A stretch of 64,000 bases of DNA. Origin: an uncultured Gammaproteobacteria bacterium. GTDB taxonomy: Bacteria; Patescibacteriota; Patescibacteriia; UBA9934. The translations under genes and the position numbers were made by a program. This document shows, piece by piece, positions 2,473 through 54,681 of this stretch. Within the stretch, counting starts at the first letter, position 1, and every line of letters begins with the position of its first letter. The notes under the pieces are model-generated. The model was not told the origin of the DNA. It made no database searches and saw only the letters and a list, made by a program, of their open reading frames with translations. The stretch lies in NCBI GenBank assembly GCA_964569575.1, contig CAZMTL010000004.1, positions 8,959 through 72,958 on the forward strand, given 5' to 3'.

Positions 2473-3201
2473 TTACTTCGCCAATTCTGCATCAACCAAT
2501 GCCTTCAACTGATCGTACGGCACTGCTCCCGAAACTAACTGACCATTTACGAAGGTAGCCGGTGTTCCTGTTACGCCTGCTGCGACTCCAGACGCGTAAT
2601 CCGCGTCCACAATGTCGGCATACTTTTCAGAATCATAACAATCCTGGAACTGCGTTGTGTTCAAACCTAGATCACCTGCAAGATCGATGTAATATGCATC
2701 GTTCAACAATGCTTGATTTGCCATCAACGTATCACCGTATTCCCAGAACTTACCTTGTTCCGCCGCACATTCCGACGCAAGAGCTGCTGGTCGAGCCTGA
2801 GGGTGGAAAGAAAGTGGGAAATGTCGGTACACCCAAGCCACATCTTCGCCATACTCTTCAACTAATCGAACCATGGAAGGATGATGACGTTCGCAGAACG
2901 GACATTCAAAATCTGAATACTCTACCAATACAACCTTCGCCTTATTGATATCTCCTCGAATGTGTTCATCTTCCTGAACAGCCGCGAGCGTACCACTAGG
3001 CTGAGGCGTACCAGTATTTGTTCCTGTGTTCGTTCCAGTATTCGTCGGAACGGTTCGTCCACCATTATTCGATCCATTTGCCCCAAACGACGGAAGACTA
3101 AATCCTCCACCAAGCACTGCCGTTACCGCAATACCTGTCACCAATCCGAAAAGAAAAATCATCTTCGGGTTACCGTCAAAAAAACCTTTACTTTCTTGCA
3201 T
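2473..3201 (-). CDS. DsbA-family thiol:disulfide oxidoreductase, membrane anchored
   Basis: Thioredoxin-fold CPFC active site in VVLVEYSDFECPFCERHHP; TM anchor IFLFGLVTGIAVTAVLGG; start could be ATG 3201 or 3162. Confidence 0.8.
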   Translation of the reverse strand: MQESKGFFDGNPKMIFLFGLVTGIAVTAVLGGGFSLPSFGANGSNNGGRTVPTNTGTNTGTNTGTPQPSGTLAAVQEDEHIRGDINKAKVVLVEYSDFECPFCERHHPSMVRLVEEYGEDVAWVYRHFPLSFHPQARPAALASECAAEQGKFWEYGDTLMANQALLNDAYYIDLAGDLGLNTTQFQDCYDSEKYADIVDADYASGVAAGVTGTPATFVNGQLVSGAVPYDQLKALVDAELAK

Positions 3202-3943
3202 AATTTTTTCGTAAAAAATTAATTCCGTACACAACTCCGAACAGTACAAGAACGATACACATGTACTGCGCCGGCGTCAGTCCCCAGTATTTTACATCAG
3301 CTGCACGGTAGAAGTCTAGAAAGAAACGCACAGCCCCATACCAAATAGAAAAGATCGCAATATACGAACCAACAGGAGCGCGCTTCTTAGCCAAAAAAAG
3401 AAACACCAAACTCATCGCTAGGCCATTTAACGAAAGATATAGTCCATGATCGTGACGCACGATCCCGTCCGGATACTCAACGCCAAGAACAAAATCCGTC
3501 GCCGTACCAGGGTGATCATGAATCAAAAAACACCCTATTCTTCCAATCCACAACCCAAACGGCAACCCAAAAATCAACGAATCACTATACATCCAAGGGT
3601 CCAATTGATGTTTTCGAAAATACCAAAGCGCAATCACCAAACAAGCAATTAATCCCCCAAACAACGACATACCTCCCTGCCAAATAAACAAAATCTCGAT
3701 CGGATTCGCCAAAAAATACGCAGGCTCGTAAAACAACACGTGCCCCAGTCGACCACCAACTGCTGCTCCTAACACAAAAAGCACGGTCAAATCATACACG
3801 TGCTTTGTGTCTCCTCCTCGAAATCGAACCATCCGAGCCGCTACAAACGAACCAAGTAAAAATCCTAACGCAACAAACAGTCCCCAGACATGCAGAGTAA
3901 ATGGTCCTATCGCAATACTTGTCCATGAAAGATATGGGATCAT
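3188..3943 (-). CDS. lgt: prolipoprotein diacylglyceryl transferase
   Basis: Polytopic 251-aa protein with an Lgt-like N-terminus (IAIGPFTLHVWGLFVALGFLLG) and the GGMSLFGG motif; ATGA overlap with gatA. Confidence 0.85.
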   Translation of the reverse strand: MIPYLSWTSIAIGPFTLHVWGLFVALGFLLGSFVAARMVRFRGGDTKHVYDLTVLFVLGAAVGGRLGHVLFYEPAYFLANPIEILFIWQGGMSLFGGLIACLVIALWYFRKHQLDPWMYSDSLIFGLPFGLWIGRIGCFLIHDHPGTATDFVLGVEYPDGIVRHDHGLYLSLNGLAMSLVFLFLAKKRAPVGSYIAIFSIWYGAVRFFLDFYRAADVKYWGLTPAQYMCIVLVLFGVVYGINFLRKNYARK

Positions 3944-5373
3944 GAAGGCATGTTTGAGTGCCAGTCTGTCAACGATTGATACGCATGCGCAACCGCCAAC
4001 ACCTTCGCGTCAGCCTTGTACGCTCCAATAAACTGAACGCCTACAGGCAAATTCTGTGCAAAACCACACGGAACAGAAATCGCGGGAATCCCGGCAATAT
4101 TCGCCGTAGTAGTAAAGATGTCAGAAAGATACATCGTAACCGGATCATTGAATTTTTCATCAATCTTCCAAGCAACCGAAGGAGACGTTGGCGTCAACAG
4201 TACATCCACCTGCTTAAACACCTCAGCAAATTCCTGCGAAATAGCTGTCTTTACCGCAACCGCCTTTTTGTAATACGCGTCGTAATAACCAGCCGACAAA
4301 ATATACGTTCCAAGCATAATTCGACGCTTCACCTCTGCGCCAAATCCCGCGCCTCGTGCCTTAACATAACTATCAAGCAATCCACCTTCAGCACGCGTTC
4401 CATATCGCATCCCATCAAAACGAGCCAAATTCGAACTTGCTTCAGCCGGTTGCAAAATATAGTACGCAGGCAAAGAATATTGCGTTAGCGGCAAACTTAC
4501 CTCCACAAACTCTGCGCCAGCTGTTTTCAACACCTCAATAGCCTCTAGTACACGTGAACGAACTTCCCCGTCCATCCCATCAATAAAATATTCTTTTGGA
4601 ACACCAATTTTTAATCCAGCTACCGAAGAAGAGAGAAGCTCGGAAGGAACAACTTCAGACGGCAACGTAGTCGCATCGTGTGCATCTTCACCAGAAATAA
4701 CTTCGTACACCATCGCTGCATCTTCAACCGTACGAGTAATCGGTCCAATTTGATCAAGTGTTGAAGCAAGTGCAATCAACCCGTAACGCGAAACACGTCC
4801 ATAAGTAGGTTTAAATCCAGTCACACCACACAATGCAGCCGGCTGACGAATTGATCCACCTGTATCTGAACCAAGAGCCACAGGAACCATTCCTGCCGCT
4901 ACCGCTGCAACCGAGCCACCCGAAGAACCTCCAGGAATGCGTTCCAAATCCCAAGGATTTTTCGTCTTCTGAAAAGCCGACGTTTCGGTAGAAGACCCCA
5001 TTGCGAATTCGTCCATGTTCACGCGGCCAATCAAAATTGCACCAGCTGCAATCAAACGATCAATCACAGTCGCGTTATACGTACTTACATAATCCTCCAA
5101 CATCTTCGAGCCCGAACTCGCATGCTTTCCAACCTGACAAAGATTATCCTTCACTGCCACCGGCACACCTGCTAATCGCGGCAATTCTTCTCCGGCCGCA
5201 ATCATCGCATCAATTTCTTTTGCACGCGTTCGAGCGTCGTCTGCATACACTTCTAAAAAAGCTCCGACAGCGGAATCCTTCTCTTCGATCACCTTCAACG
5301 AAGCTTCTACCACATCAACCGCAGTAAGCGATTTGTTTCGAAGACCGTCGTAAATTTGTTTTACAGTATACAT
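3940..5373 (-). CDS. gatA: Asp/Glu-tRNA amidotransferase subunit A
   Basis: 477 aa; amidase signature [14 protein letters not shown]...[12 protein letters not shown]. Confidence 0.95.
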
Positions 5374-5375
5374 AA

Positions 5376-5663
5376 TTATTCAAATACAGCAGGAACCTGC
5401 AATGCACCACCTTTTTCATTAGGAAACGAATCAATCAAGCGCGCGCGCTCAGTCTCGTTTTGCTCAACCACATCATCTCGAAAAACATTCTGACGATCAG
5501 AAAGGTACGCCTTTGCCTCAACATTCGAAGTATCCACTTCCTGCAATTTACCAATATATTCCAAAATACGCGGCATCTGCGCCTTTAGCATTTCTTTCTC
5601 TTCCGAACTTAGCTCCAGATAAGCCAGTTTAGACAATCGTTCAATATCAAATACATCTTTCAT
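5376..5663 (-). CDS. gatC: Asp/Glu-tRNA amidotransferase subunit C
   Basis: 95 aa, immediately upstream of gatA; typical GatC size and ...LAYLELSSEEKEML... pattern. Confidence 0.85.
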   Translation of the reverse strand: MKDVFDIERLSKLAYLELSSEEKEMLKAQMPRILEYIGKLQEVDTSNVEAKAYLSDRQNVFRDDVVEQNETERARLIDSFPNEKGGALQVPAVFE

Positions 5664-5672
5664 AGGTACAAT

Positions 5673-7716
<2,044 letters not shown>

Positions 7717-7718
7717 TT

Positions 7719-7898
7719 TTACAACAATCCAGCTTCAGAAAAATGTAATCGTGAATCGGTTCCAATAACCATGTCCGTACTCTGAATCACGAGCACTTCG
7801 TCTGCCTTCTCGGCCGTTGGACGAATAATCGTGAAGAATATCCCAATAAACACGATAATAAACACGAATCCCAGCGCCGTTGATGCAAATAATTTCAT
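7719..7898 (-). CDS. small single-pass membrane protein (59 aa), below the ORF-track cutoff
   Basis: ATG at 7898; MKLFASTALGFVFIIVFIGIFFTIIRPTAEKADEVLVIQSTDMVIGTDSRLHFSEAGLL; clear TM helix and its own terminator; preferred over the overlapping 63-aa ORF 7735..7926. Confidence 0.4.
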   Translation of the reverse strand: MKLFASTALGFVFIIVFIGIFFTIIRPTAEKADEVLVIQSTDMVIGTDSRLHFSEAGLL

Positions 7899-7957
7899 AA
7901 GAAATGGCTACTGAATTAACACACAATAATAGCAGAAAAAAGGCGTTTTGTCAATGT

Positions 7958-7998
7958 AAACACGAAACCCCCGCCACACACGTGTAGTGCGGCAGGGG
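7958..7998 (-). terminator. intrinsic terminator of GC island A
   Basis: On the minus strand CCCCUGCCGCAC-uacacgu-GUGUGGCGGGGG forms a 12-bp stem with two G:U pairs, followed by UUUCGUGUUU. Confidence 0.65.
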
Positions 7999-8003
7999 TC
8001 AGG

Positions 8004-8288
8004 CTACGAGTCAAACGTCTCGGTGCGAAGCTCCAACCCGTTCCAAACAGGCTGAAAGATCGCATCGTGATCATTTGATCCCTCGCGATAAACTCCAATC
8101 CGTTGACCTTCGGGAAGGATGATCAACAGCTGGCCCTTACGCGGATCGTAGCGAAGAACTACCAGGCCCTCCACTCCTGTCGACCGAATGATCGCTTCCA
8201 CCCGATCGAGCAGGTGAATGGCGGTACACTCGACACCGGCACGGAGTATGAAGCGGATCTCCCGCTGAACAGACTCTGTCAGACGCAC
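8004..8288 (-). CDS. hypothetical protein (94 aa), GC island A, second gene
   Basis: GTG start overlapping the upstream ORF stop by 10 nt (GAGTGCGTCTGA); GC-rich; no family recognised. Confidence 0.5.
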   Translation of the reverse strand: MRLTESVQREIRFILRAGVECTAIHLLDRVEAIIRSTGVEGLVVLRYDPRKGQLLIILPEGQRIGVYREGSNDHDAIFQPVWNGLELRTETFDS

Positions 8289-8545
8289 TCGCGGAACGTC
8301 GCCTCGTGCATCTGAAGGAACGACTCCAGCGGATCGGGGCTGACGGGCCGAATGGGCCGGCGCACCTTGGATCCATCGATCTCGACAACGATCTCGAACG
8401 ACTCGTCATCGAAGAACACCTCAGCCTCCAGACCGAGCTCGTAGAGAACCCGCTGGACGACGTCCTCGTCGAGCGAATCCTGCTCGAGCAGCTTCACGAT
8501 CACCACTCCAACATCGGCAGACGAACACACGCGCCTTGCGACCAT
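8279..8545 (-). CDS. acidic hypothetical protein (88 aa), GC island A, first gene
   Basis: AGGAGAGG SD four nt before ATG 8545; hand-counted GC3 71/88 (about 81%); no family recognised. Confidence 0.65.
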   Translation of the reverse strand: MVARRVCSSADVGVVIVKLLEQDSLDEDVVQRVLYELGLEAEVFFDDESFEIVVEIDGSKVRRPIRPVSPDPLESFLQMHEATFRECV

Positions 8546-8644
8546 GACCTCTCCTGAAAAACGGCATTATCGCCTCGAAAAAGACAAATATTCTCTTCTT
8601 CAAGCCAACCAAGAATACAAATGCACTCTTGCTAATAACGAAAG

Positions 8645-8673
8645 AACATAACAAAAAAATGGCCCTCTGTCAA
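8645..8673 (-). promoter_or_regulatory. sigma70-type promoter for island A
   Basis: Minus strand TTGACA-N17-TATGTT; the -35 lies in the loop of the weak hairpin that follows the pilD stop. Confidence 0.45.
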
Positions 8674-8686
8674 CCAAAAAGCCAAA

Positions 8687-9475
8687 TTACACTCCTAAAT
8701 ACCAACCAAGAATCCATTCTCCAAAAAACATCACGAACACAATAGCGCAGGCCATAAACGTTCCGAATGGTACATGGCTCGAAAGCGCACGCTTCTTACT
8801 AAGCACCAAAAGCAATCCACCAATCCCACCAAAAATATAACTAAACAACAACGCCAACAAACCTAACTGCGGGCCAAGCAAAAACCCCATCAACAACCCC
8901 ATACGCACATCCCCATCACCAACCCACTTCCCTTGCGAAATCAGGTACTGAACGGCAAAAAACGTTCCAATCAGCAATCCTCCCAACACAAACCACACAA
9001 TAGAAGCACCAAGCGCCAAATTGAATATCAAGATAGCCAAAATCGCCGGCACCGAAAACCGATCTAAAATAACCGAAAAACGATAATCATACACAAAGAT
9101 CACCATCAAAAACGACACCACCACAACATCTCGAACAAACAGCAAAATTAATTCGGACGAATCAACGAATTCAGGAATGCCAAACCCAAGCGCCACACGC
9201 AAAAACAACAACGTGGTCAAAATTCCCATTGCAAGCTCGACCGCCGGGTACTGCCACTCAATCACCGTCGCACACGAACGACATCGTCCTCGCAACGAAA
9301 TATAACTCACCACCGGAATCGTATCCAAAAAGGCAATCGGCTCTAAACACGTGTGACAGGTTGATTTCGGTTTTAACAACGCCGCATCTGCCTTTGTGCG
9401 AAAAATAACCACATTCAACAATCCGCCGATCGCAATCCCGAGTAATGCCGAAAGAATAATGCCAAGAACAATCAT
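8687..9475 (-). CDS. pilD: prepilin peptidase (A24 family)
   Basis: Cys-rich N-terminal CHTCLEPI...RGRCRSC, polytopic membrane protein, catalytic-Asp region GDGDVRMGLLMGFLLG; ATG 9475 abuts the pilin stop. Confidence 0.85.
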   Translation of the reverse strand: MIVLGIILSALLGIAIGGLLNVVIFRTKADAALLKPKSTCHTCLEPIAFLDTIPVVSYISLRGRCRSCATVIEWQYPAVELAMGILTTLLFLRVALGFGIPEFVDSSELILLFVRDVVVVSFLMVIFVYDYRFSVILDRFSVPAILAILIFNLALGASIVWFVLGGLLIGTFFAVQYLISQGKWVGDGDVRMGLLMGFLLGPQLGLLALLFSYIFGGIGGLLLVLSKKRALSSHVPFGTFMACAIVFVMFFGEWILGWYLGV

Positions 9476-9476
9476 A

Positions 9477-9983
9477 TTAATTCGAAAGTAGAATTTGTCG
9501 ACATGCGCCCGATTCAAAACCAGTCTCGGTTGCACAATTCAATCCCTTGCTCAAACCAAGAATCGCATTGTCCTTCTCGAGCTCGAACTGAATTCGATAC
9601 GTTTCCTCGTTCGCTGCGTAACAATACGCATTCGATGCTTCGGAACACTGCGAAAGCTCTCGCAGTCCGCGCTGAGGAGGCGAAAACACAACTTCCATAT
9701 ATGTTTGTTCAGCACGCGCACAAGCACCCACAAAGCCATCAACCCCCAAGCAGCGCGTCGAAGGCCATCCAAGCGCAATGTATTCCGGAGAAACAGGAAA
9801 TTCGCTCGTATCATGATAATACAGTTCTAACGCAACCTGCGTTTGACGCACATCCGAAAGCCGAACGGCGTCCCGCATCTGCGCTCGCGCACTCGACAAC
9901 ACCAACACAGTAATCAATCCCAAGATCGCAAGCACCGAAGTAGCGATCAACAATTCAATTCTTGTAATTCCTGACTGAGTCAT
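9477..9983 (-). CDS. type IV pilin-like protein
   Basis: Class III signal MTQSG/ITRIELLIATSVLAILGLI with Glu at +5; 168 aa. Confidence 0.75.
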   Translation of the reverse strand: MTQSGITRIELLIATSVLAILGLITVLVLSSARAQMRDAVRLSDVRQTQVALELYYHDTSEFPVSPEYIALGWPSTRCLGVDGFVGACARAEQTYMEVVFSPPQRGLRELSQCSEASNAYCYAANEETYRIQFELEKDNAILGLSKGLNCATETGFESGACRQILLSN

Positions 9984-38866: not shown

Positions 38867-38886
38867 TCGAACGCAAAGGAGGCGTG

Positions 38887-39444
38887 ATGCCTGACGACAT
38901 GGGACGACCAACCGCAGAGGAGATCCTGACGGATGGCGCGTACCTGAACGTGGACGCGGTACGTATGTACGAACTTCTCCAAAGGTGCATCGAGGAAACG
39001 GGAATGCTGCCTCAGTGGTACTTCGAGCACATGCCTCGAGTATTCCCTCAGGCCTGCATCGAACTGGCGGTCATGACCGTCCGATCCGGCAAGCGGCACA
39101 TCTTCCTGCTTCAACGACCAGACAACGATACGCACTGGCCGCGTCAGTGGCACATGCCCGGTACGACACTGTACCCAAAGGACAGCGAAGAAACGATGTG
39201 GAAACGGCTACTGGCATCCGAGCTCGGACAACTCCTCCGGCAAGAGATGTTCCGTCTCGCCTTCAACCACATCAGCACACGAGAAGAACGGGAACGCGGC
39301 GAGTGCATGCACGCCGTCTACACGGGACGCATCGGCACCGCATCGAAGAAGCTGGAACGCTTCGGAACCTTCTTTCCGGTCGATCAACTCCCGGAAGAAG
39401 TCATCCAACACCATCGAACCATACTCACCAGGCTCACCCACTAA
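38887..39444 (+). CDS. Nudix-fold-like protein with degenerate Nudix box, GC-rich copy (island B)
   Basis: AAGGAGG SD then ATG 38887; WHMPGTTLYPKDSEETMWKRLLASELG resembles a degenerate Nudix box; about 40% identity (hand alignment) to the adjacent 39510..40013 product. Confidence 0.7.
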   Translation: MPDDMGRPTAEEILTDGAYLNVDAVRMYELLQRCIEETGMLPQWYFEHMPRVFPQACIELAVMTVRSGKRHIFLLQRPDNDTHWPRQWHMPGTTLYPKDSEETMWKRLLASELGQLLRQEMFRLAFNHISTREERERGECMHAVYTGRIGTASKKLERFGTFFPVDQLPEEVIQHHRTILTRLTH

Positions 39445-39462: not shown

Positions 39463-39490
39463 GGAACGCCACCTGGCGTTCCTTTCGTTT
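39463..39490 (+). terminator. intrinsic terminator
   Basis: GGAACGCC-acct-GGCGTTCC followed by TTTCGTTT. Confidence 0.65.
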
Positions 39491-39509
39491 ACAGAATAAA
39501 ATACTCAAT

Positions 39510-40013
39510 ATGAAATCTATTGATCTATCAAACATCATTCTCTCGCTCGAAAAGTACAGCTCAGAAAACAACGGCCAAATCCCACGTGATTGGTTCGAAA
39601 AAATGCCCATCTACTTCCCTCAAGCGGCTATCGAGCTAGGGATCATTAAAGAGATCAATAACTCTCATCACATCTTCCTCGCTCAAAGGCCAGCAGACGA
39701 TCCATATTGGCCCAGCGAATGGCACCTTCCGGGCACAGTCCTCCGCCACACAGACACAGAAAAAACAATTTGGAAAAGACTACTTTCTGATGAAGTGGAT
39801 GGGATAATACAACCTTCCGAAGCAAAACTGATCGATACACACATTTCGAGCAAACAAGATCGCGAACGCGGCGCGTGCGTTCACTCAATCTATCTCGCAA
39901 AAACAAATAAAGACATCAAAAGTGGTAAATTCTTCCCGATCATCGATTTACCGAAAAATACAATCAAGCACCACCTGCCACTCATCGAAAAAATTAAAAA
40001 ATCCCTAAAATAA
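39510..40013 (+). CDS. Nudix-fold-like protein with degenerate Nudix box, AT-rich copy
   Basis: ATG 39510 lies inside track ORF 38985..40013; MKSIDLSN...WHLPGTVLRHTDTEKTIWKRLLSDEVDG; paralog of 38887..39444. Confidence 0.7.
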   Translation: MKSIDLSNIILSLEKYSSENNGQIPRDWFEKMPIYFPQAAIELGIIKEINNSHHIFLAQRPADDPYWPSEWHLPGTVLRHTDTEKTIWKRLLSDEVDGIIQPSEAKLIDTHISSKQDRERGACVHSIYLAKTNKDIKSGKFFPIIDLPKNTIKHHLPLIEKIKKSLK

Positions 40014-41944: not shown

Positions 41945-44473
41945 CTACTTCACATTCTTCTTCCTCAAATAAGGCTTCAAATACTGTCCCGTATAACTCT
42001 TAGCCGAACGAGCAATATCCTCCGGAGTCCCTTCTGCAACAACCATTCCTCCACCAACTCCACCCTCTGGACCCATGTCGATTAACCAGTCAGCCGTTTT
42101 GATCACATCCAAATTGTGTTCAATGATCAAAACCGTATTTCCTTTCTCGACCAAACGATGCAACACCTCAAGTAATGTCTTAATATCTTCGAAGTGAAGT
42201 CCTGTCGTCGGCTCGTCGAGTAAATAAAGTGTTCGGCCCGTATTTCGCTTCGCAAGTTCAGAAGCCAACTTCACACGCTGAGCCTCACCACCCGAAAGCG
42301 TATTTGCAGACTGACCTAGCTTCAAATAACCAAGCCCAACGCTCACGAGTGTTACCAACTTATCGTGAACAGAAGGAATGTCCTTAAAAAACTCCGTTGC
42401 TTCCTCGATCGTCATCTCCAAAACTTGAAAAATATTCTTTTCTTTAAATTCAACCTCCAACGTTTCACGATTAAATCGTCGCCCTTTACACACATCACAC
42501 TGCACATACACCGTTGGCAAGAAATGCATTTCGATCGCAATTTCCCCATGCCCCTCACAATGATCACAACGTCCACCCGCCACGTTAAAGCTAAAACGAC
42601 CAGTTTTATATCCACGGAACTTCGCTTCATCCGTCGTAGCAAACAAATCACGAATCGGCGTCCAAGCTCCGGTATAAGTAGCTGGGTTAGATCTAGACGT
42701 TCGTCCAATCGGAGATTGATCCATCAAAATTGCCTTATCGATGTACTCAATGCCCAAAACAGATTTATGAGCACCAGGCTTCCCTTTGCTGCCGTACAAC
42801 TTTTTCGCAATCGCTTTGTAAGTCACTTCCAACATCAAGGTCGACTTCCCGCTTCCAGAAACACCTGTAATACAAACCATGCGTCGAAGCGGAATATCAA
42901 CATCTACATTCTTCAAATTGTTCTCGGTAGCTCCCCGAACCTTAATCGCATCCTTCCCAACCTTTCTGCGCTCGGTAGGAACCGGAATAACGCGATCACC
43001 CCGCAGATACGCCGCGGTCAGCGATTTCTTATCTTCAAAAATCTCGGGCGTTGGTCCGGCAGCAACAATCTCCCCTCCGTGCACACCAGCACTCGGTCCA
43101 ACCTCGACCATGTAATCCGATCGCCGAATGGTATCTTCGTCATGCTCTACAACCAACACGGTATTCCCCAAATCTCGCAACGATTCAAGCGTATTAATCA
43201 ACTGATCGTTATCACGTTGATGCAGACCAATCGTTGGTTCATCAAGTACATACAAAGCACCAACCAAACGCGAACCAATTTGCGAAGCTAAACGAATACG
43301 TTGCGCTTCACCCCCAGAAAGCGTCCCGGCCTTACGATCGAGCGTTAAATAATGCAACCCAACATCCAACATAAACGTCAATCGGCTTTCGATCTCTTTC
43401 AATACGGTTCCAGCAATTTCCAACCCACGCTCGTCTAACGCGATATGTAGAATGAAATCTGCGGCTTCCGAAATCGTTTTCGCTGTGTACTGAACAATAT
43501 TTTCACCACCAATAAGCACACTCAACGCCTCCTTGCGCAATCGCTTCCCATCACACGCGGGACAAATTTCTTCAGAGAAAAGCTCGAGCGTTCCTAACCC
43601 AGTACACGCTTCACAAGCTCCATAGGGACTATTGAACGAAAAAAGTCGTGGCTCGATTTCTGGAAACGAAAATCCACAATTTACACAACTAAATTTAGTA
43701 GAAAACAACCGCTCTTCCCCTGACGCGTACACCACATTCACCAAATCCTGTCCGCGATCAACCGCATTTTCGAGCGCTTCATTCAAGCGTTGACGCGTGT
43801 CCTTGTCCGGATCCTTTAGGCTAACCTGTGGAATAACATCGATAACCACTTCGATCGTATGCTGCTTATAGCGAGAAAGCTTAATTTCTTCACTCAAACG
43901 ATGCATCTTGCCATCTACCCGCACCTTTGCGAATCCTGAATTATACAAATCATACAATAACTGATAATAATTCCCCTTTCGACCACGAACAACCGGAGCC
44001 AAAATTTGAATTTCGCCAGAAGGAATCGCCTTTTCCTTTGCATTTTGCTTCATCAACAAATCAGAAATTTCATCAATCGTTAAACGCTCAATTCTCGATT
44101 TACAATCAGGACAATGCGCCTCACCAACACGCGCGTAAAGAACACGAAGGTAATCGTAAATTTCCGTCACCGTCGCCACAGTTGAACGCGGGTTTCGAGA
44201 ATGTGCTTTTTGATCAATCGAAATAGCTGGTGACAACCCTTCGATTTCGTCTACATCCGGCTTTTGCATCTGACCCAAAAATTGCCGTGCATAAGCAGAA
44301 AGCGATTCGATATAACGACGCTGCCCTTCCGCAAAAATCGTATCAAAAGCGAGGGAAGATTTTCCGCTTCCCGACACGCCAGTAAAACAAATAAGTTGAT
44401 TTCGAGGCAATTCGAGTGAAACATTTTTTAAGTTATGCTCACGCGCACCCTTGATTGTAATTTTTTCTTTCAT
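41945..44473 (-). CDS. uvrA: excinuclease ABC subunit A (842 aa)
   Basis: Starts [17 protein letters not shown]; two ABC ATPase modules ([18 protein letters not shown]) and LSGGEAQR signatures; the 142 upstream codons of the track ORF are read-through of GC-rich DNA. Confidence 0.95.
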
Positions 44474-44480
44474 ATATAAT
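44451..44480 (+). promoter_or_regulatory. candidate sigma70 promoter facing into GC island D (antisense to the uvrA start)
   Basis: TTGATT-N18-TATAAT on the plus strand; it overlaps the uvrA start codon region, so could be fortuitous AT-rich sequence. Confidence 0.4.
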
Positions 44481-45191
44481 TGTTGAGATGTTGATAGCGT
44501 TCTCGTGGTGAGATCGGCGTCGCATCGGCGAAAGGAGGCCCCCATGTCTCGTGGAGCAGTGAACGCTGGACGAACGCGTCCAGCCGAGACCACGCGTCGC
44601 CCGGCAATGCAGGTGCATTGCCGGGACCGATCGGGCGCACGACGCGCTTCGAACGGAGGTGAGCAGTCTCGATCCGTCGTGCCCGGCGTGACCACCTCCG
44701 GAAACGGAGACGGTCGAAGCCCGCGAGCGCGCGAACAGCGCTGCGGTGGTGGTGGGCTCGCGCCCATCCGAGGAGCTTCACCCGACGAAGAGTCCAGGTG
44801 CCCGGGGGCGTCGGAACGGGCGAACCCGGGCACGCCAACGCAGACACGAAGGCCAGCGTCCGGCCGAGGAGGTGAGGAGTCTCGATCCATCACGCCCAAC
44901 TACGCGAGCGATTCCGCAACCGGAAACGCTCGCGAACAGCTGTACTGTGGCAACGGGGGACTTTCCTCCACACCAGGATCTGGACACGACTACCGTGCAC
45001 CGGGCTTCGGAGGCAAGAAGCACATCAAGGACCCTCGAGGAAAGAAGCGCGGCGACAACCCGCGAGGAATTCCGCATCTCCCTCGACGAATTCGACTGCC
45101 CACGCACCCGGGCATGCAATGGACTCCGGCCAAGAAGCCTTAGCCGAACACAATTGACGTACAGACGAAACCCGCCAGGCGATCGTCATCT
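44481..45191. other. GC island D: hairpin-dense GC-rich element, coding status and strand unresolved
   Basis: 43/60 G+C in line 44581-44640; many perfect stems (see findings); all six frames are open over long stretches; no protein-like translation. Confidence 0.6.
44544..45143 (+). CDS. candidate R/G/S/P-rich basic repeat protein (199 aa), island D
   Basis: AAAGGAGG-N5-ATG, open to TAG 45141, terminator 50 nt downstream. Against it: low-complexity translation, and codon-position GC of about 72/73/58% in the first 60 codons. Confidence 0.3.
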
Positions 45192-45221
45192 GCCCTGCAA
45201 AAGCAGGGCCTTTCATTTTTT
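45192..45221 (+). terminator. intrinsic terminator (plus-strand sense), overlapping the uvrB stop
   Basis: GCCCTGC-aaaa-GCAGGGC followed by CTTTCATTTTTT; on the minus strand the same hairpin has no U-run. Confidence 0.55.
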
Positions 45222-47270: not shown

Positions 47271-47435
47271 AACAAAATTGCCCGACTCCACGCTCTACTA
47301 CAAAGTAGATGACGCTTTTGGGATCGGGATCGTTCGTAAATTGTAAAACCAGCATAGCACACTTAAAGAAGAAAACAAAAACGCGCCCCTTCTTGCAAAG
47401 TGAGCGCGCAGCATGCAGTGAAGCATGAATTCCTC

Positions 47436-47645
47436 CTATTCGTCTTCGGTAGTGTGGCGACGATTACCACGAGTGGTGCGGACGTATCCGCGTTTAGAGT
47501 GATACCCGCCGCCATTACGACGGCGAAGTGCCACCAGATCGGTACGCCGACCCTGCGGAAGCACGACAACGATCCGAAGATCATCCTCGCGCTTCTGTTC
47601 CTTGGTCCTACCAACAGGCTTCGAAGCCTTCCGCTTCTTCGCCAT
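47436..47645 (-). CDS. hyper-basic small protein (69 aa), GC island E, second gene
   Basis: AGGAGGTGAGAG directly before ATG 47645; MAKKRKASKPVGRTKEQKRE...RRRNGGGYHSKRGYVRTTRGNRRH; GC-rich stem plus U-run downstream. Confidence 0.6.
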   Translation of the reverse strand: MAKKRKASKPVGRTKEQKREDDLRIVVVLPQGRRTDLVALRRRNGGGYHSKRGYVRTTRGNRRHTTEDE

Positions 47646-47662
47646 CTCTCACCTCCTGGTGC

Positions 47663-47872
47663 TCACAACCACGTGAGCACGTACATCTTCACGCGATGAA
47701 ATGCGCTCGAGCGCACCACCGAGTGGACCACCTCCGGAAGCTGAGGCTCCCAGTACAGGGAGTTGAGCTTGCCAGTGAGCTCGACCGTCCCTTCCAGGAA
47801 CGACCGAACCCGACCGGGCTTGAGATCGAACTTCTCGAGAATGAATCCCGAGATCAAACCCCATAGAATCAT
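47663..47872 (-). CDS. small protein with hydrophobic N-terminus (69 aa), GC island E, first gene
   Basis: GGAGGG four nt before ATG 47872; MILWGLISGFILEKF...; its stop is 15 nt before the next gene's SD. Confidence 0.55.
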   Translation of the reverse strand: MILWGLISGFILEKFDLKPGRVRSFLEGTVELTGKLNSLYWEPQLPEVVHSVVRSSAFHRVKMYVLTWL

Positions 47873-47895
47873 GATCCCTCCAATCAAGACACACC

Positions 47896-47924
47896 ACAGT
47901 ATACCAAAAAAGAGGCTTTGTCAA
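47896..47924 (-). promoter_or_regulatory. sigma70-type promoter for island E
   Basis: Minus strand TTGACA-N15-TATACT with TGG upstream (extended -10), or N17-TACTGT; the -35 sits inside terminator hairpin AGAGG..CCTCT of the upstream gene. Confidence 0.45.
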
Positions 47925-53895: not shown

Positions 53896-54681
53896 TCACG
53901 AGTCCGGGCTAGAGGTTCGCGGAAGTCCTGCTGACAGACGGGTCATTACCTCGGGAGGAAACGAAGCTGGCTGATCGAGCCTCATACCTCCTCCGCCGGC
54001 GGTGATACGAAGCCTACCAAGCCGCAACAGACGCAACTCCCGTCGAGCGAGCGCCACCAGACGAACACCGTCTTCCAGATACCCTTCGTAGCGACGAATG
54101 GTGCCTTCGAGCGAAATTCCTTGACGAAGGCACTCAACCACCCATTCTGCGCAGATTGACGGAGGCAGCCGAGGAACACGCGTGAAGAATTCTACGACCT
54201 TCGACCAGTCCATCAGATGTTCCTGGAAGTGCTGCTGCACATGTTCCGGAACCTCCAACAAGGCCGATCGACGAGCGCAGACAGCTGAGACGATGGACCG
54301 GTTGAGCAGATCTTTATCAGCGGTATTCTGACCTGCTCGACACAGCGCATCGATGATCTTCTTCACATACCCAGGCAATTCGCCAGGGTACTTCTTGTGC
54401 ACCCCTGATTCCGCAAGCGCACTCAGAACTGCATAACGCGTCTCCTGACACGGAAGCAGCTTCTCCCACCTACGTACCGCCGAAAGCACCGCACGTCGTG
54501 GAAGCATCGGCAAGTCACACTGTACTGCTCGGGCATGCGCGACAATCACGTCGATGACGTCCACTTCTTCACGCGTCAAAAACCACTTGGTCGACACATA
54601 ACGACGCGCCGAGCGCGCATATTGATCGAGAGCCTCCTTGGCCAGTTGTTCAAGGTTGATCGAAACATCAATCCACTGCAT
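53896..54681 (-). CDS. hypothetical alpha-helical protein (261 aa), GC island F
   Basis: GAGGAG SD nine nt before ATG 54681; GC-rich; no family recognised. Confidence 0.55.
   Translation of the reverse strand: MQWIDVSINLEQLAKEALDQYARSARRYVSTKWFLTREEVDVIDVIVAHARAVQCDLPMLPRRAVLSAVRRWEKLLPCQETRYAVLSALAESGVHKKYPGELPGYVKKIIDALCRAGQNTADKDLLNRSIVSAVCARRSALLEVPEHVQQHFQEHLMDWSKVVEFFTRVPRLPPSICAEWVVECLRQGISLEGTIRRYEGYLEDGVRLVALARRELRLLRLGRLRITAGGGGMRLDQPASFPPEVMTRLSAGLPRTSSPDS

Follow-up and report, generated by a model that had tools for sequence, protein, structure and literature searches.

An orphan two-gene cassette of foreign composition in the hypervariable pilD-ligA slot of an Uhrbacteria-like Patescibacterium

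A survey of Patescibacteria reported hundreds of genomic islands alongside individually transferred genes, and noted that classical defence systems, including toxin-antitoxin modules, are believed to be rare in genomes so reduced (PMC12455944). Among the described regions, the small orphan-gene islets found in recombination hot spots (PMC12455944) come closest to the cassette examined here, which is likewise a compositional outlier, is absent from the syntenic position in relatives and encodes hypothetical proteins between conserved housekeeping blocks. The cassette differs from those islets in its size of 0.6 kb, in having no mobility gene, tRNA, flanking repeat pair or found donor, and in combining an apparently foreign coding part with a host-type promoter. 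A second comparison is with type II toxin-antitoxin modules of the RelBE/ParDE-type layout. The cassette is similar to these in its two co-oriented genes of about 90 codons, the upstream one acidic, joined by a start/stop overlap, and in having its own promoter and terminator within a variable, horizontally exchanged region; it is unlike them in that neither protein matches a toxin or antitoxin in sequence or fold, ORF2 is acidic, ORF1 carries no recognisable DNA-binding domain, and both are singletons. On balance, the locus is probably a strain-specific operon of two genes, acquired horizontally by an Uhrbacteria-like Patescibacterium. It measures about 0.6 kb from Shine-Dalgarno to terminator and occupies the gap between pilD and ligA, a hypervariable slot for cargo.

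Architecture and coding content of the cassette

The window is the whole 64,000-nucleotide stretch of DNA that was analysed. Reading the region in both orientations places the ORF1 and ORF2 cassette on the minus strand, as a segment of about 60% GC in a genome of 46% GC. The features of the cassette and its immediate surroundings are the following.

8676..8716, minus strand: degenerate direct repeat, copy a, over the 3' end of pilD and the first part of the pilD terminator
8684..8660, minus strand: intrinsic terminator hairpin of pilD, 10-bp stem and T7 run (dG -13.1 kcal/mol, z -3.4)
8673..8645, minus strand: predicted promoter P1, TTGACA-N17-TATGTT, 10/12 consensus positions
8546..8638, minus strand: 5' leader of about 93 nt, AT-rich, holding repeat copy b and a terminator-like element
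8578-8619, minus strand: degenerate direct repeat, copy b, in the cassette leader
8557-8574, minus strand: leader element GGC(8574-8572)-gataat-GCC(8565-8563) followed by T5, terminator-like and apparently decayed
8555..8548, minus strand: Shine-Dalgarno of ORF1, AGGAGAGG, read from the sequence, 2 nt ahead of the ATG
8545..8279, minus strand: ORF1, ATG start, orphan protein of 88 aa
8288..8004, minus strand: ORF2, GTG start, orphan protein of 94 aa
8000..7966, minus strand: GC-rich terminator-like hairpin at the 3' end of the cassette, 14 pairs, 9 of them G-C (dG -29.5 kcal/mol, z -4.35)
7954..7926, minus strand: predicted promoter P2 of the 59-aa gene, TTGACA-N17-TATTAT, 11/12 consensus positions
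7898..7719, minus strand: orphan gene of 59 aa with an N-terminal hydrophobic segment, native composition (GC 0.42)
7722..7693, minus strand: predicted terminator of the 59-aa gene (z -5.5)

Much of this architecture had been proposed in an earlier description made from the letters of the window (the sequence-only reading) and is borne out here. Its acidic 88-aa first ORF with a strong third-position GC bias has a pI of 4.3, a GC3 of 0.80 and the Shine-Dalgarno given above; the GTG of its 94-aa second ORF does overlap the first stop codon (TGA, 8281..8279) by 10 nt, at 8288..8279 (junction GTGCGTCTGA); the promoter, described with no strand, is present on the minus strand; and the AT-rich leader with its GGC-gataat-GCC motif and T-run is found as described, the run being a T5. 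The terminator stem it described holds up as a hairpin, with 14 pairs where 12 bp had been named, except that the U-tract 3' of it is broken up (TTTCGTGTTT). This hairpin is GC-rich and donor-like in composition, whereas native terminators are AT-rich. Integron attC sites are judged by their size and their GTTRRRY core; inspection of the sequence led us to reject an integron cassette with the 3' hairpin as its attC site, the hairpin being too short at 35 nt and lacking such a core.

Promoter P1 is a consensus match, and a scan of the 1.2-kb region found 2 such sites against 1.4 expected. It is AT-rich and host-like, a TG precedes the -10, and its -35 hexamer sits within the loop of the pilD terminator hairpin. 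There are six TTGACA-N16-18-TAnnnT sites in the window, P1 among them, and the one at 47924 has the same design, with its -35 embedded in a terminator. A duplication relating P1 to P2 was considered and set aside, the likeness being marginal (P 0.027) and restricted to the promoter consensus. In the leader, the GGC-gataat-GCC hairpin has only 3 bp and is negligible by itself; the segment 8540-8640, start codon included, has a folding energy of -33.4 kcal/mol (z -4.7). As an observation made by eye, GGC-gataat-GCC-T5 aligns to the pilD terminator within an extended 98-nt unit, outside the 42-column repeat that is statistically supported (see below). ORF2 lacks a well-placed Shine-Dalgarno: its one candidate is a GAGG that lies 13 nt ahead of the start codon, and the start codon itself precedes the ORF1 stop by 7 nt. 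The ORF2 frame offers no other start on the way up from the GTG at 8288 to the in-frame stop near 8408; downstream, the next one is a GTG at codon 30.

ORF1 and ORF2 are genuine coding frames, and neither non-coding RNA nor chance ORFs. We judge them to be coding because the phase of codon periodicity flips at their junction and because G exceeds C at the first codon position on the minus strand only. Specifically, GC by codon position is 0.71/0.32/0.80 in ORF1 (chi-square p 2e-9) and 0.67/0.39/0.60 in ORF2 (chi-square p 0.002), the first position of ORF1 has G1 0.46 versus C1 0.25, and, followed along the sequence in sliding windows, the codon position with low GC changes from the frame of ORF1 to that of ORF2 at about 8290-8320, which is the ORF junction. 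Dinucleotide shuffles yield a tandem same-strand pair of ORFs, each 88 aa or longer, in 0.7% of cases; the longest ORF measures 94 aa or more in 56% of shuffles, so that ORF length alone is unremarkable. Exactly these two ORFs are carried by both the NCBI record and the Logan assembly. In the Logan assembly of run SRR15237806, a 920-bp contig is identical to positions 8594..7675 of the window, crosses both composition junctions and gives the same three gene calls. The ends of this contig were considered as a sign of population polymorphism at the slot borders; this was rejected, since the whole assembly is fragmented into contigs of about 1 kb.

Two other ways of reading the open frames were rejected. 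The mirror ORFs on the plus strand (8103-8315 and 8306-8557) show C1>G1 and a C-rich third position, an antisense signature, and have neither a Shine-Dalgarno nor a promoter. A single frameshifted gene is contradicted by the ORF2 frame, which closes upstream at about 8408, and no homologue, whatever its length, was found. GC-rich islands within AT-rich genomes are frequently structured RNAs, and the whole 681-nt transcript folds at z -6.8 relative to 20 shuffles, so a structured GC-rich non-coding RNA, or else an assembly chimera, was weighed as the source of the signal. The z score is, however, an inflated artefact, because shuffling homogenises the AT-rich leader with the GC-rich body: under codon and dinucleotide shuffles, ORF1 alone gives z -0.2 to -0.4 and ORF2 alone z -2.1 to -2.7. 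Rfam, searched at E<=5, returned four matches, the best at E 0.45 and all far under gathering thresholds, hence none credible. Together with the strong codon periodicity, whose phase changes with the frame, and the identity of both junctions in the independent Logan assembly, this makes a non-coding or chimeric origin extremely improbable.

The pilD-ligA slot and the origin of its contents

In LigA searches, the nearest genomes are Candidatus Uhrbacteria and other Patescibacteria metagenome-assembled genomes, at 54-61% identity, and by this sequence similarity the host is an Uhrbacteria-like Patescibacterium. These LigA scans, which covered genome and metagenome collections in search of closer relatives, reached 61% identity at best, and exact look-ups of PilD and LigA matched no record. 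The tblastn alignments with relatives leave out the beginning of the listed ligA ORF and set in at its residue 14-19, which places the true ligA start at the ATG at 7661 and gives the pilD-ligA gap a whole length of about 1,025 bp. The position of the cassette between the pilus operon and ligA, as given in the sequence-only reading, is thus confirmed with one correction: the 59-aa gene, with its separate promoter and terminator, lies between ORF2 and ligA as a second occupant of the slot.

The gap was compared across 28 loci, 24 of them distinct. The gene order recJ-rnh-pilM-response regulator-pilin-pilD-[gap]-ligA-gatC-gatA is kept in the 24 distinct relatives, and the gap itself ranges from 51 bp to 3,042 bp. 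The cargo includes sigma-70 region 4/HTH proteins at two loci (L004 and L018), an M16 peptidase at another (L007) and a GC3-rich family of about 200 aa common to two more (L013 and L025; 34% identity, E 2e-26), the rest being orphan ORFs with no Pfam match; nothing resembling toxin-antitoxin or defence genes was found among the gap cargo of relatives. Several cargos exceed the GC content of the locus in which they lie (0.62 versus 0.52 in L010; 0.61 versus 0.53 in L013).

ORF1, ORF2 and the 59-aa protein have no relative at any compared locus (tblastn, E<=30), and the gene pair, which the sequence-only reading had suggested looking for in other genomes, was found neither in the 24 distinct relatives nor in the database collections. 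The cassette is thus missing from the syntenic site in all 24 distinct relatives, an absence that applies at the family level only, because these relatives share just 54-61% LigA identity. The opposite case, a universally present, syntenic pair of native composition, had been named as incompatible with an island; the pair is instead missing from the relatives' site and its composition is non-native. As to whether related genomes have an empty pilD-ligA region, about one-third of the gaps are AT-rich and measure at most 205 bp, but none is a true empty-site allele, because the nearest relatives stand at only 56-61% LigA identity.

The deviation in composition is pronounced. In 300-nt windows, GC peaks at 0.61 (0.615 in 200-nt windows) against a 300-nt mean of 0.46 (sd 0.042), and only five GC islands of such height occur within the 64-kb window. 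High GC sets in at about 8555, shortly before the ATG, and lasts until the hairpin ends at about 7960. Donor-like codon usage, claimed in the sequence-only reading for the cassette as a whole, applies in part: GC3 exceeds the native value (0.46 +/- 0.06 for the genes of the window) in both ORFs, but ORF2 attains only 0.60, significantly below ORF1 (Fisher p 0.006), GC3 falling from 0.76-0.90 in ORF1 to 0.55 toward the 3' end of ORF2. The lysine fraction K/(K+R) is 0.22 in ORF1 and 0.08 in ORF2, compared with 0.45 +/- 0.14 in native genes, and this arginine-for-lysine bias, a property read from the translated sequence, indicates that the proteins evolved in a GC-rich genome and not locally. No donor lineage could be identified in any collection searched, and the marks of mobility that were looked for (an integrase, a tRNA gene nearby, a flanking repeat pair) were not found; because there is neither a donor nor a homologue, horizontal acquisition is inferred from composition alone.

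Acquisition need not imply function. The two genes might be neutral passengers: a GC-rich donor would have supplied the fragment recently, and its genes, though intact, would have no function and be under no selection in this host. Such an origin would suit the unameliorated composition, the occurrence of the cassette in one genome and one sample only and the drop in GC3 from ORF1 to the 3' end of ORF2, which could be patchy decay, and many horizontally acquired regions have been reported for Patescibacteria (PMC12455944). It sits less easily with a GC-rich segment trimmed nearly exactly from Shine-Dalgarno to terminator and joined to a host-type promoter, or with two intact ORFs that fill the whole insert, which is rare for a random fragment. 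We therefore regard passenger DNA as rather doubtful.

Possible traces of sequence rearrangement are also present. Copies a and b of the degenerate direct repeat align over 42 columns at about 76% identity (P 0.0002 against 5000 dinucleotide shuffles, local alignment), and a 14-mer, GGG(T/A)TTCGTGTTTA, occurs both at the 3' end of the island and within the 59-aa gene (P 0.004). The pilD 3'-end repeat and the 14-mer may be rearrangement scars at a recombination hot spot.

Protein identity, predicted structure and the toxin-antitoxin layout

ORF1 has a net charge of -10 and ORF2, mildly acidic with a pI of 5.6, one of -2. The sequence-only reading had recognised no family for either protein, and our profile and sequence searches, which gave no relative, agree. 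No significant match was obtained for ORF1 or ORF2 in Pfam (up to E<=10), NCBIfam, PADLOC or PHROGs. The sole profile match of ORF2 is to DUF4911 (PF16256), a family itself with no known function, in which residues 38-63 align to positions 17-43 of the 57-position model; at E 0.11 and 13 bits versus a gathering score of 29.3 it is not significant. ORF1 retrieved one PHROG entry at E 0.1. Neither protein has a meaningful match among PDB sequences, or any match in plasmid and phage records (tblastn, E<=1) or in viral and metagenome contigs. A word-indexed search of 5.8 billion clusters returned each protein matching itself only; ORF1, ORF2 and the 59-aa protein form singleton clusters, and in a collection of about 15 billion proteins ORF1 and ORF2 each stand alone. 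When ORF2 was compared exhaustively by phmmer with 1.84 billion representatives, the protein itself and one repeat-inflated match came back, and no credible relative. That match (P0003, 498 aa, E 2e-4) consists of near-identical tandem repeats, FG-GAP-like as judged by eye, and its E value is not credible because the score adds up matches to repeated units; the best single unit reaches 28 bits with 14/39 identical residues, far from significant at that database size.

Possible kinship with small ORFs in other pilD-ligA gaps was also rejected. BLASTP gave nothing between ORF1 and a 74-aa acidic ORF of one gap (L024), for which a z of 3.2-3.7 ranks tenth among 2762 background ORFs, and nothing between ORF2 and an 87-aa ORF of another (L004).

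Structure prediction, named in the sequence-only reading as a way of checking the pair, yielded single-sequence AlphaFold2 models with the topology H-H-E-E-E-H for ORF1 (pLDDT 58.7) and H-H-E-E-E for ORF2 (pLDDT 58.3). Statements about the folds are weak because model confidence is low (pLDDT about 58). The shared H-H-E-E-E order raised the idea that the two are tandem paralogues, which was rejected, Smith-Waterman similarity being at shuffle level (P 0.31).

Around a dozen pilins or pseudopilins appear in the best 60 matches of the low-confidence ORF1 model, and the cassette lies directly downstream of the pilin and pilD genes; on these grounds ORF1, or the pair, might be an accessory of the adjacent type IV pilus system, with a pilin-like or pseudopilin-like ORF1. 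The sequence of ORF1 argues against this. Its N-terminus, MVARRVCSSADVGVVIVKLLEQ, has no class III signal peptide motif (Gly-1, Glu+5), whereas the genuine pilin at 9983..9477 carries one (GITRIELLIA) and has the hydrophobic helix as well. The features that define type IV pilins and type II secretion pseudopilins (a prepilin leader, the Gly(-1)/Glu(+5) motif and a hydrophobic alpha1-N) are missing from ORF1, as read from its sequence, and its low-confidence model is no closer to these proteins than to generic alpha+beta folds. Moreover, the slot is empty or holds unrelated cargo in relatives, so that the adjacency is not conserved, and the foreign composition speaks against a core pilus role. 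A pilus accessory is accordingly very unlikely.

The layout had been called that of a classic type II toxin-antitoxin module. The overlapping pair with its acidic first gene stands; the toxin-antitoxin identity does not, there being no family, an acidic ORF2 and singleton proteins. In its full form, this reading makes ORF1 a labile antitoxin and ORF2 a toxin of a new type II toxin-antitoxin or abortive-infection family, with coupling that would keep the antitoxin in excess. It draws on the two small, adjacent, co-oriented genes with a 10-nt overlap and the acidic one first, predicted to be co-transcribed from a dedicated single promoter to a single terminator (a feature of low specificity), on the location of the cassette in a variable, horizontally exchanged slot and on the ORF2 model, whose two N-terminal helices followed by three strands we take to resemble RelE/ParE in order.

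The remaining evidence points the other way. Known toxin superfamilies or folds (RelE/ParE, MazF/CcdB, PIN, HicA, Doc, HipA, GNAT, zeta and others) were looked for and not found, and no toxin, antitoxin or defence family was matched in Pfam (even at E<=10), NCBIfam, PADLOC or PHROG, nor any PDB sequence. ORF1 shows no antitoxin DNA-binding domain (RHH, HTH, AbrB/SpoVT or Phd/YefM), which in such antitoxins goes with a toxin-binding tail. In place of an acidic antitoxin with a basic toxin, both proteins are acidic (pI 4.3 and 5.6). Toxin-antitoxin families are typically widespread, scattered over many genomes and mobile elements, whereas no such distribution emerged from the cluster, viral, metagenome, plasmid and phage collections, and the slot cargo of relatives contains no toxin-antitoxin or defence genes. 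The overlap itself has little diagnostic value because genes of this genome routinely overlap or touch their neighbours: among the housekeeping genes of the window, some pairs overlap by 4, 7 or 23 nt and others are spaced 1-3 nt apart. Toxin-antitoxin identity, for which the layout read from the sequence is the sole basis, is not supported, and we consider a new-family module of this kind unlikely.

Proposed expression of the pair and its significance

For the preferred reading, a horizontally acquired two-gene operon, the sequence suggests the following course of expression. A host-type sigma-70 promoter with its -35 in the loop of the pilD terminator would drive transcription from a start near 8638, through a 93-nt leader that appears to have arisen as a duplicate of the pilD 3' end with its terminator and to have decayed since. 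The acidic 88-aa ORF1 would be translated off its strong Shine-Dalgarno. ORF2 would most likely be made by termination-reinitiation, with its output tied to that of ORF1, because it has no well-placed Shine-Dalgarno and starts 7 nt before the ORF1 stop. The imported GC-rich hairpin would end transcription, perhaps leakily, and the interrupted U-tract may permit read-through into the 59-aa gene. Such coupling of ORF2 output to ORF1 would suit joint action of the products. Both are small, cytoplasmic alpha/beta proteins and probably act as a stoichiometric pair with an accessory function; a neutraliser-effector relationship between them is conceivable. A bolder version makes ORF1 and ORF2 the founders of a neutraliser-effector family not seen before, of toxin-antitoxin or anti-phage type and so far limited to one uncultured Uhrbacterium, and the pilD-ligA gap a slot in which this lineage recurrently captures GC-rich foreign cassettes; this seems to us distinctly unlikely.

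The cassette belongs to an ordinary category, the small islets of orphan genes that occupy recombination hot spots. Its layout carries a warning: where overlap is the default, a small acidic gene overlapped by a second one is no predictor of a toxin-antitoxin module. Should ORF2 nevertheless be toxic and ORF1 protective, the pair would constitute a new toxin-antitoxin family, and one from a phylum in which few such systems are thought to exist. The comparison also documents, across Uhrbacteria-like genomes, a conserved hypervariable slot that extends from the type IV pilus genes to ligA. This slot has repeatedly held unrelated, often GC-enriched cargo and could aid the study of gene flow into streamlined episymbionts.

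The slot between pilD and ligA in related genomes

Across Uhrbacteria-like genomes, the gap between the type IV pilus gene pilD and ligA is a hypervariable slot, ranging in size from 51 bp to 3 kb. Our survey covered loci L002-L028 and L083-L097 of these relatives, upstream of ligA, at approximately 2900-6000 in locus coordinates. The slots of L013 and L025 hold a common GC3-rich family of about 200 aa (34% identity, E 2e-26), that of L018 holds two sigma-70-like genes, and that of L007 an M16 peptidase.

The cassette leader and the neighbouring small gene

In the genome under study, the slot holds the cassette of two overlapping orphan ORFs and a second, separate gene:

7719-7898, minus strand: orphan ORF of 59 aa, native in composition, hydrophobic segment at the N-terminus

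Three hairpins are predicted in the fold of the AT-rich cassette leader (8540-8640, minus strand; dG -33.4 kcal/mol, z -4.7); the final one extends over part of the Shine-Dalgarno site and start codon. This fold may be regulatory, or it may be a mere by-product of the duplicated terminator sequence. The 59-aa orphan, likewise found in this genome alone, has a promoter matching the consensus at 11/12 positions and a strong terminator, and it carries TCGTGTTTATT twice as an internal tandem. It probably encodes a genuine small membrane protein.

Other GC-rich islets in the window

Elevated GC content also marks the following features elsewhere in the window:

38884-39444, plus strand: gene for a NUDIX-domain protein, GC3 0.70
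44440-45215: spacer of 776 bp from uvrB to the actual start of uvrA, GC up to 0.70 (genome 0.46)
47400-47924, minus strand: islet transcribed from a predicted promoter, TTGACA-N17-TATACT, at 47924
47887..47663, minus strand: ORF of 74 aa in this islet, GC3 0.76, Shine-Dalgarno GGAGGGA
53896-54681, minus strand: ORF of 261 aa, GC per codon position 0.66/0.45/0.57

The terminator that lies upstream of the 47924 promoter carries the promoter's -35 hexamer in its loop, an arrangement shared with the cassette promoter at 8673. Neither the 74-aa nor the 261-aa ORF has a match in Pfam; the latter, a singleton cluster, is a further compositional islet.

The uvrB-uvrA spacer looks non-coding, because GC is flat over the codon positions of its longest ORF (0.67/0.67/0.63). 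It has no match in Rfam, even at E<=1, and each strand has a minimum free energy z-score near -3.5 (20 shuffles only). The spacer could be either a structured RNA that has yet to be described or inserted non-coding DNA of foreign origin.

Directly downstream of the GC-rich NUDIX gene lies a paralogue of native composition (approximately 39470-40013, plus strand) with a clearly similar sequence. The GC-rich gene looks like a foreign copy placed beside a resident one. A search of 5.8 billion clusters returned only two homologues.
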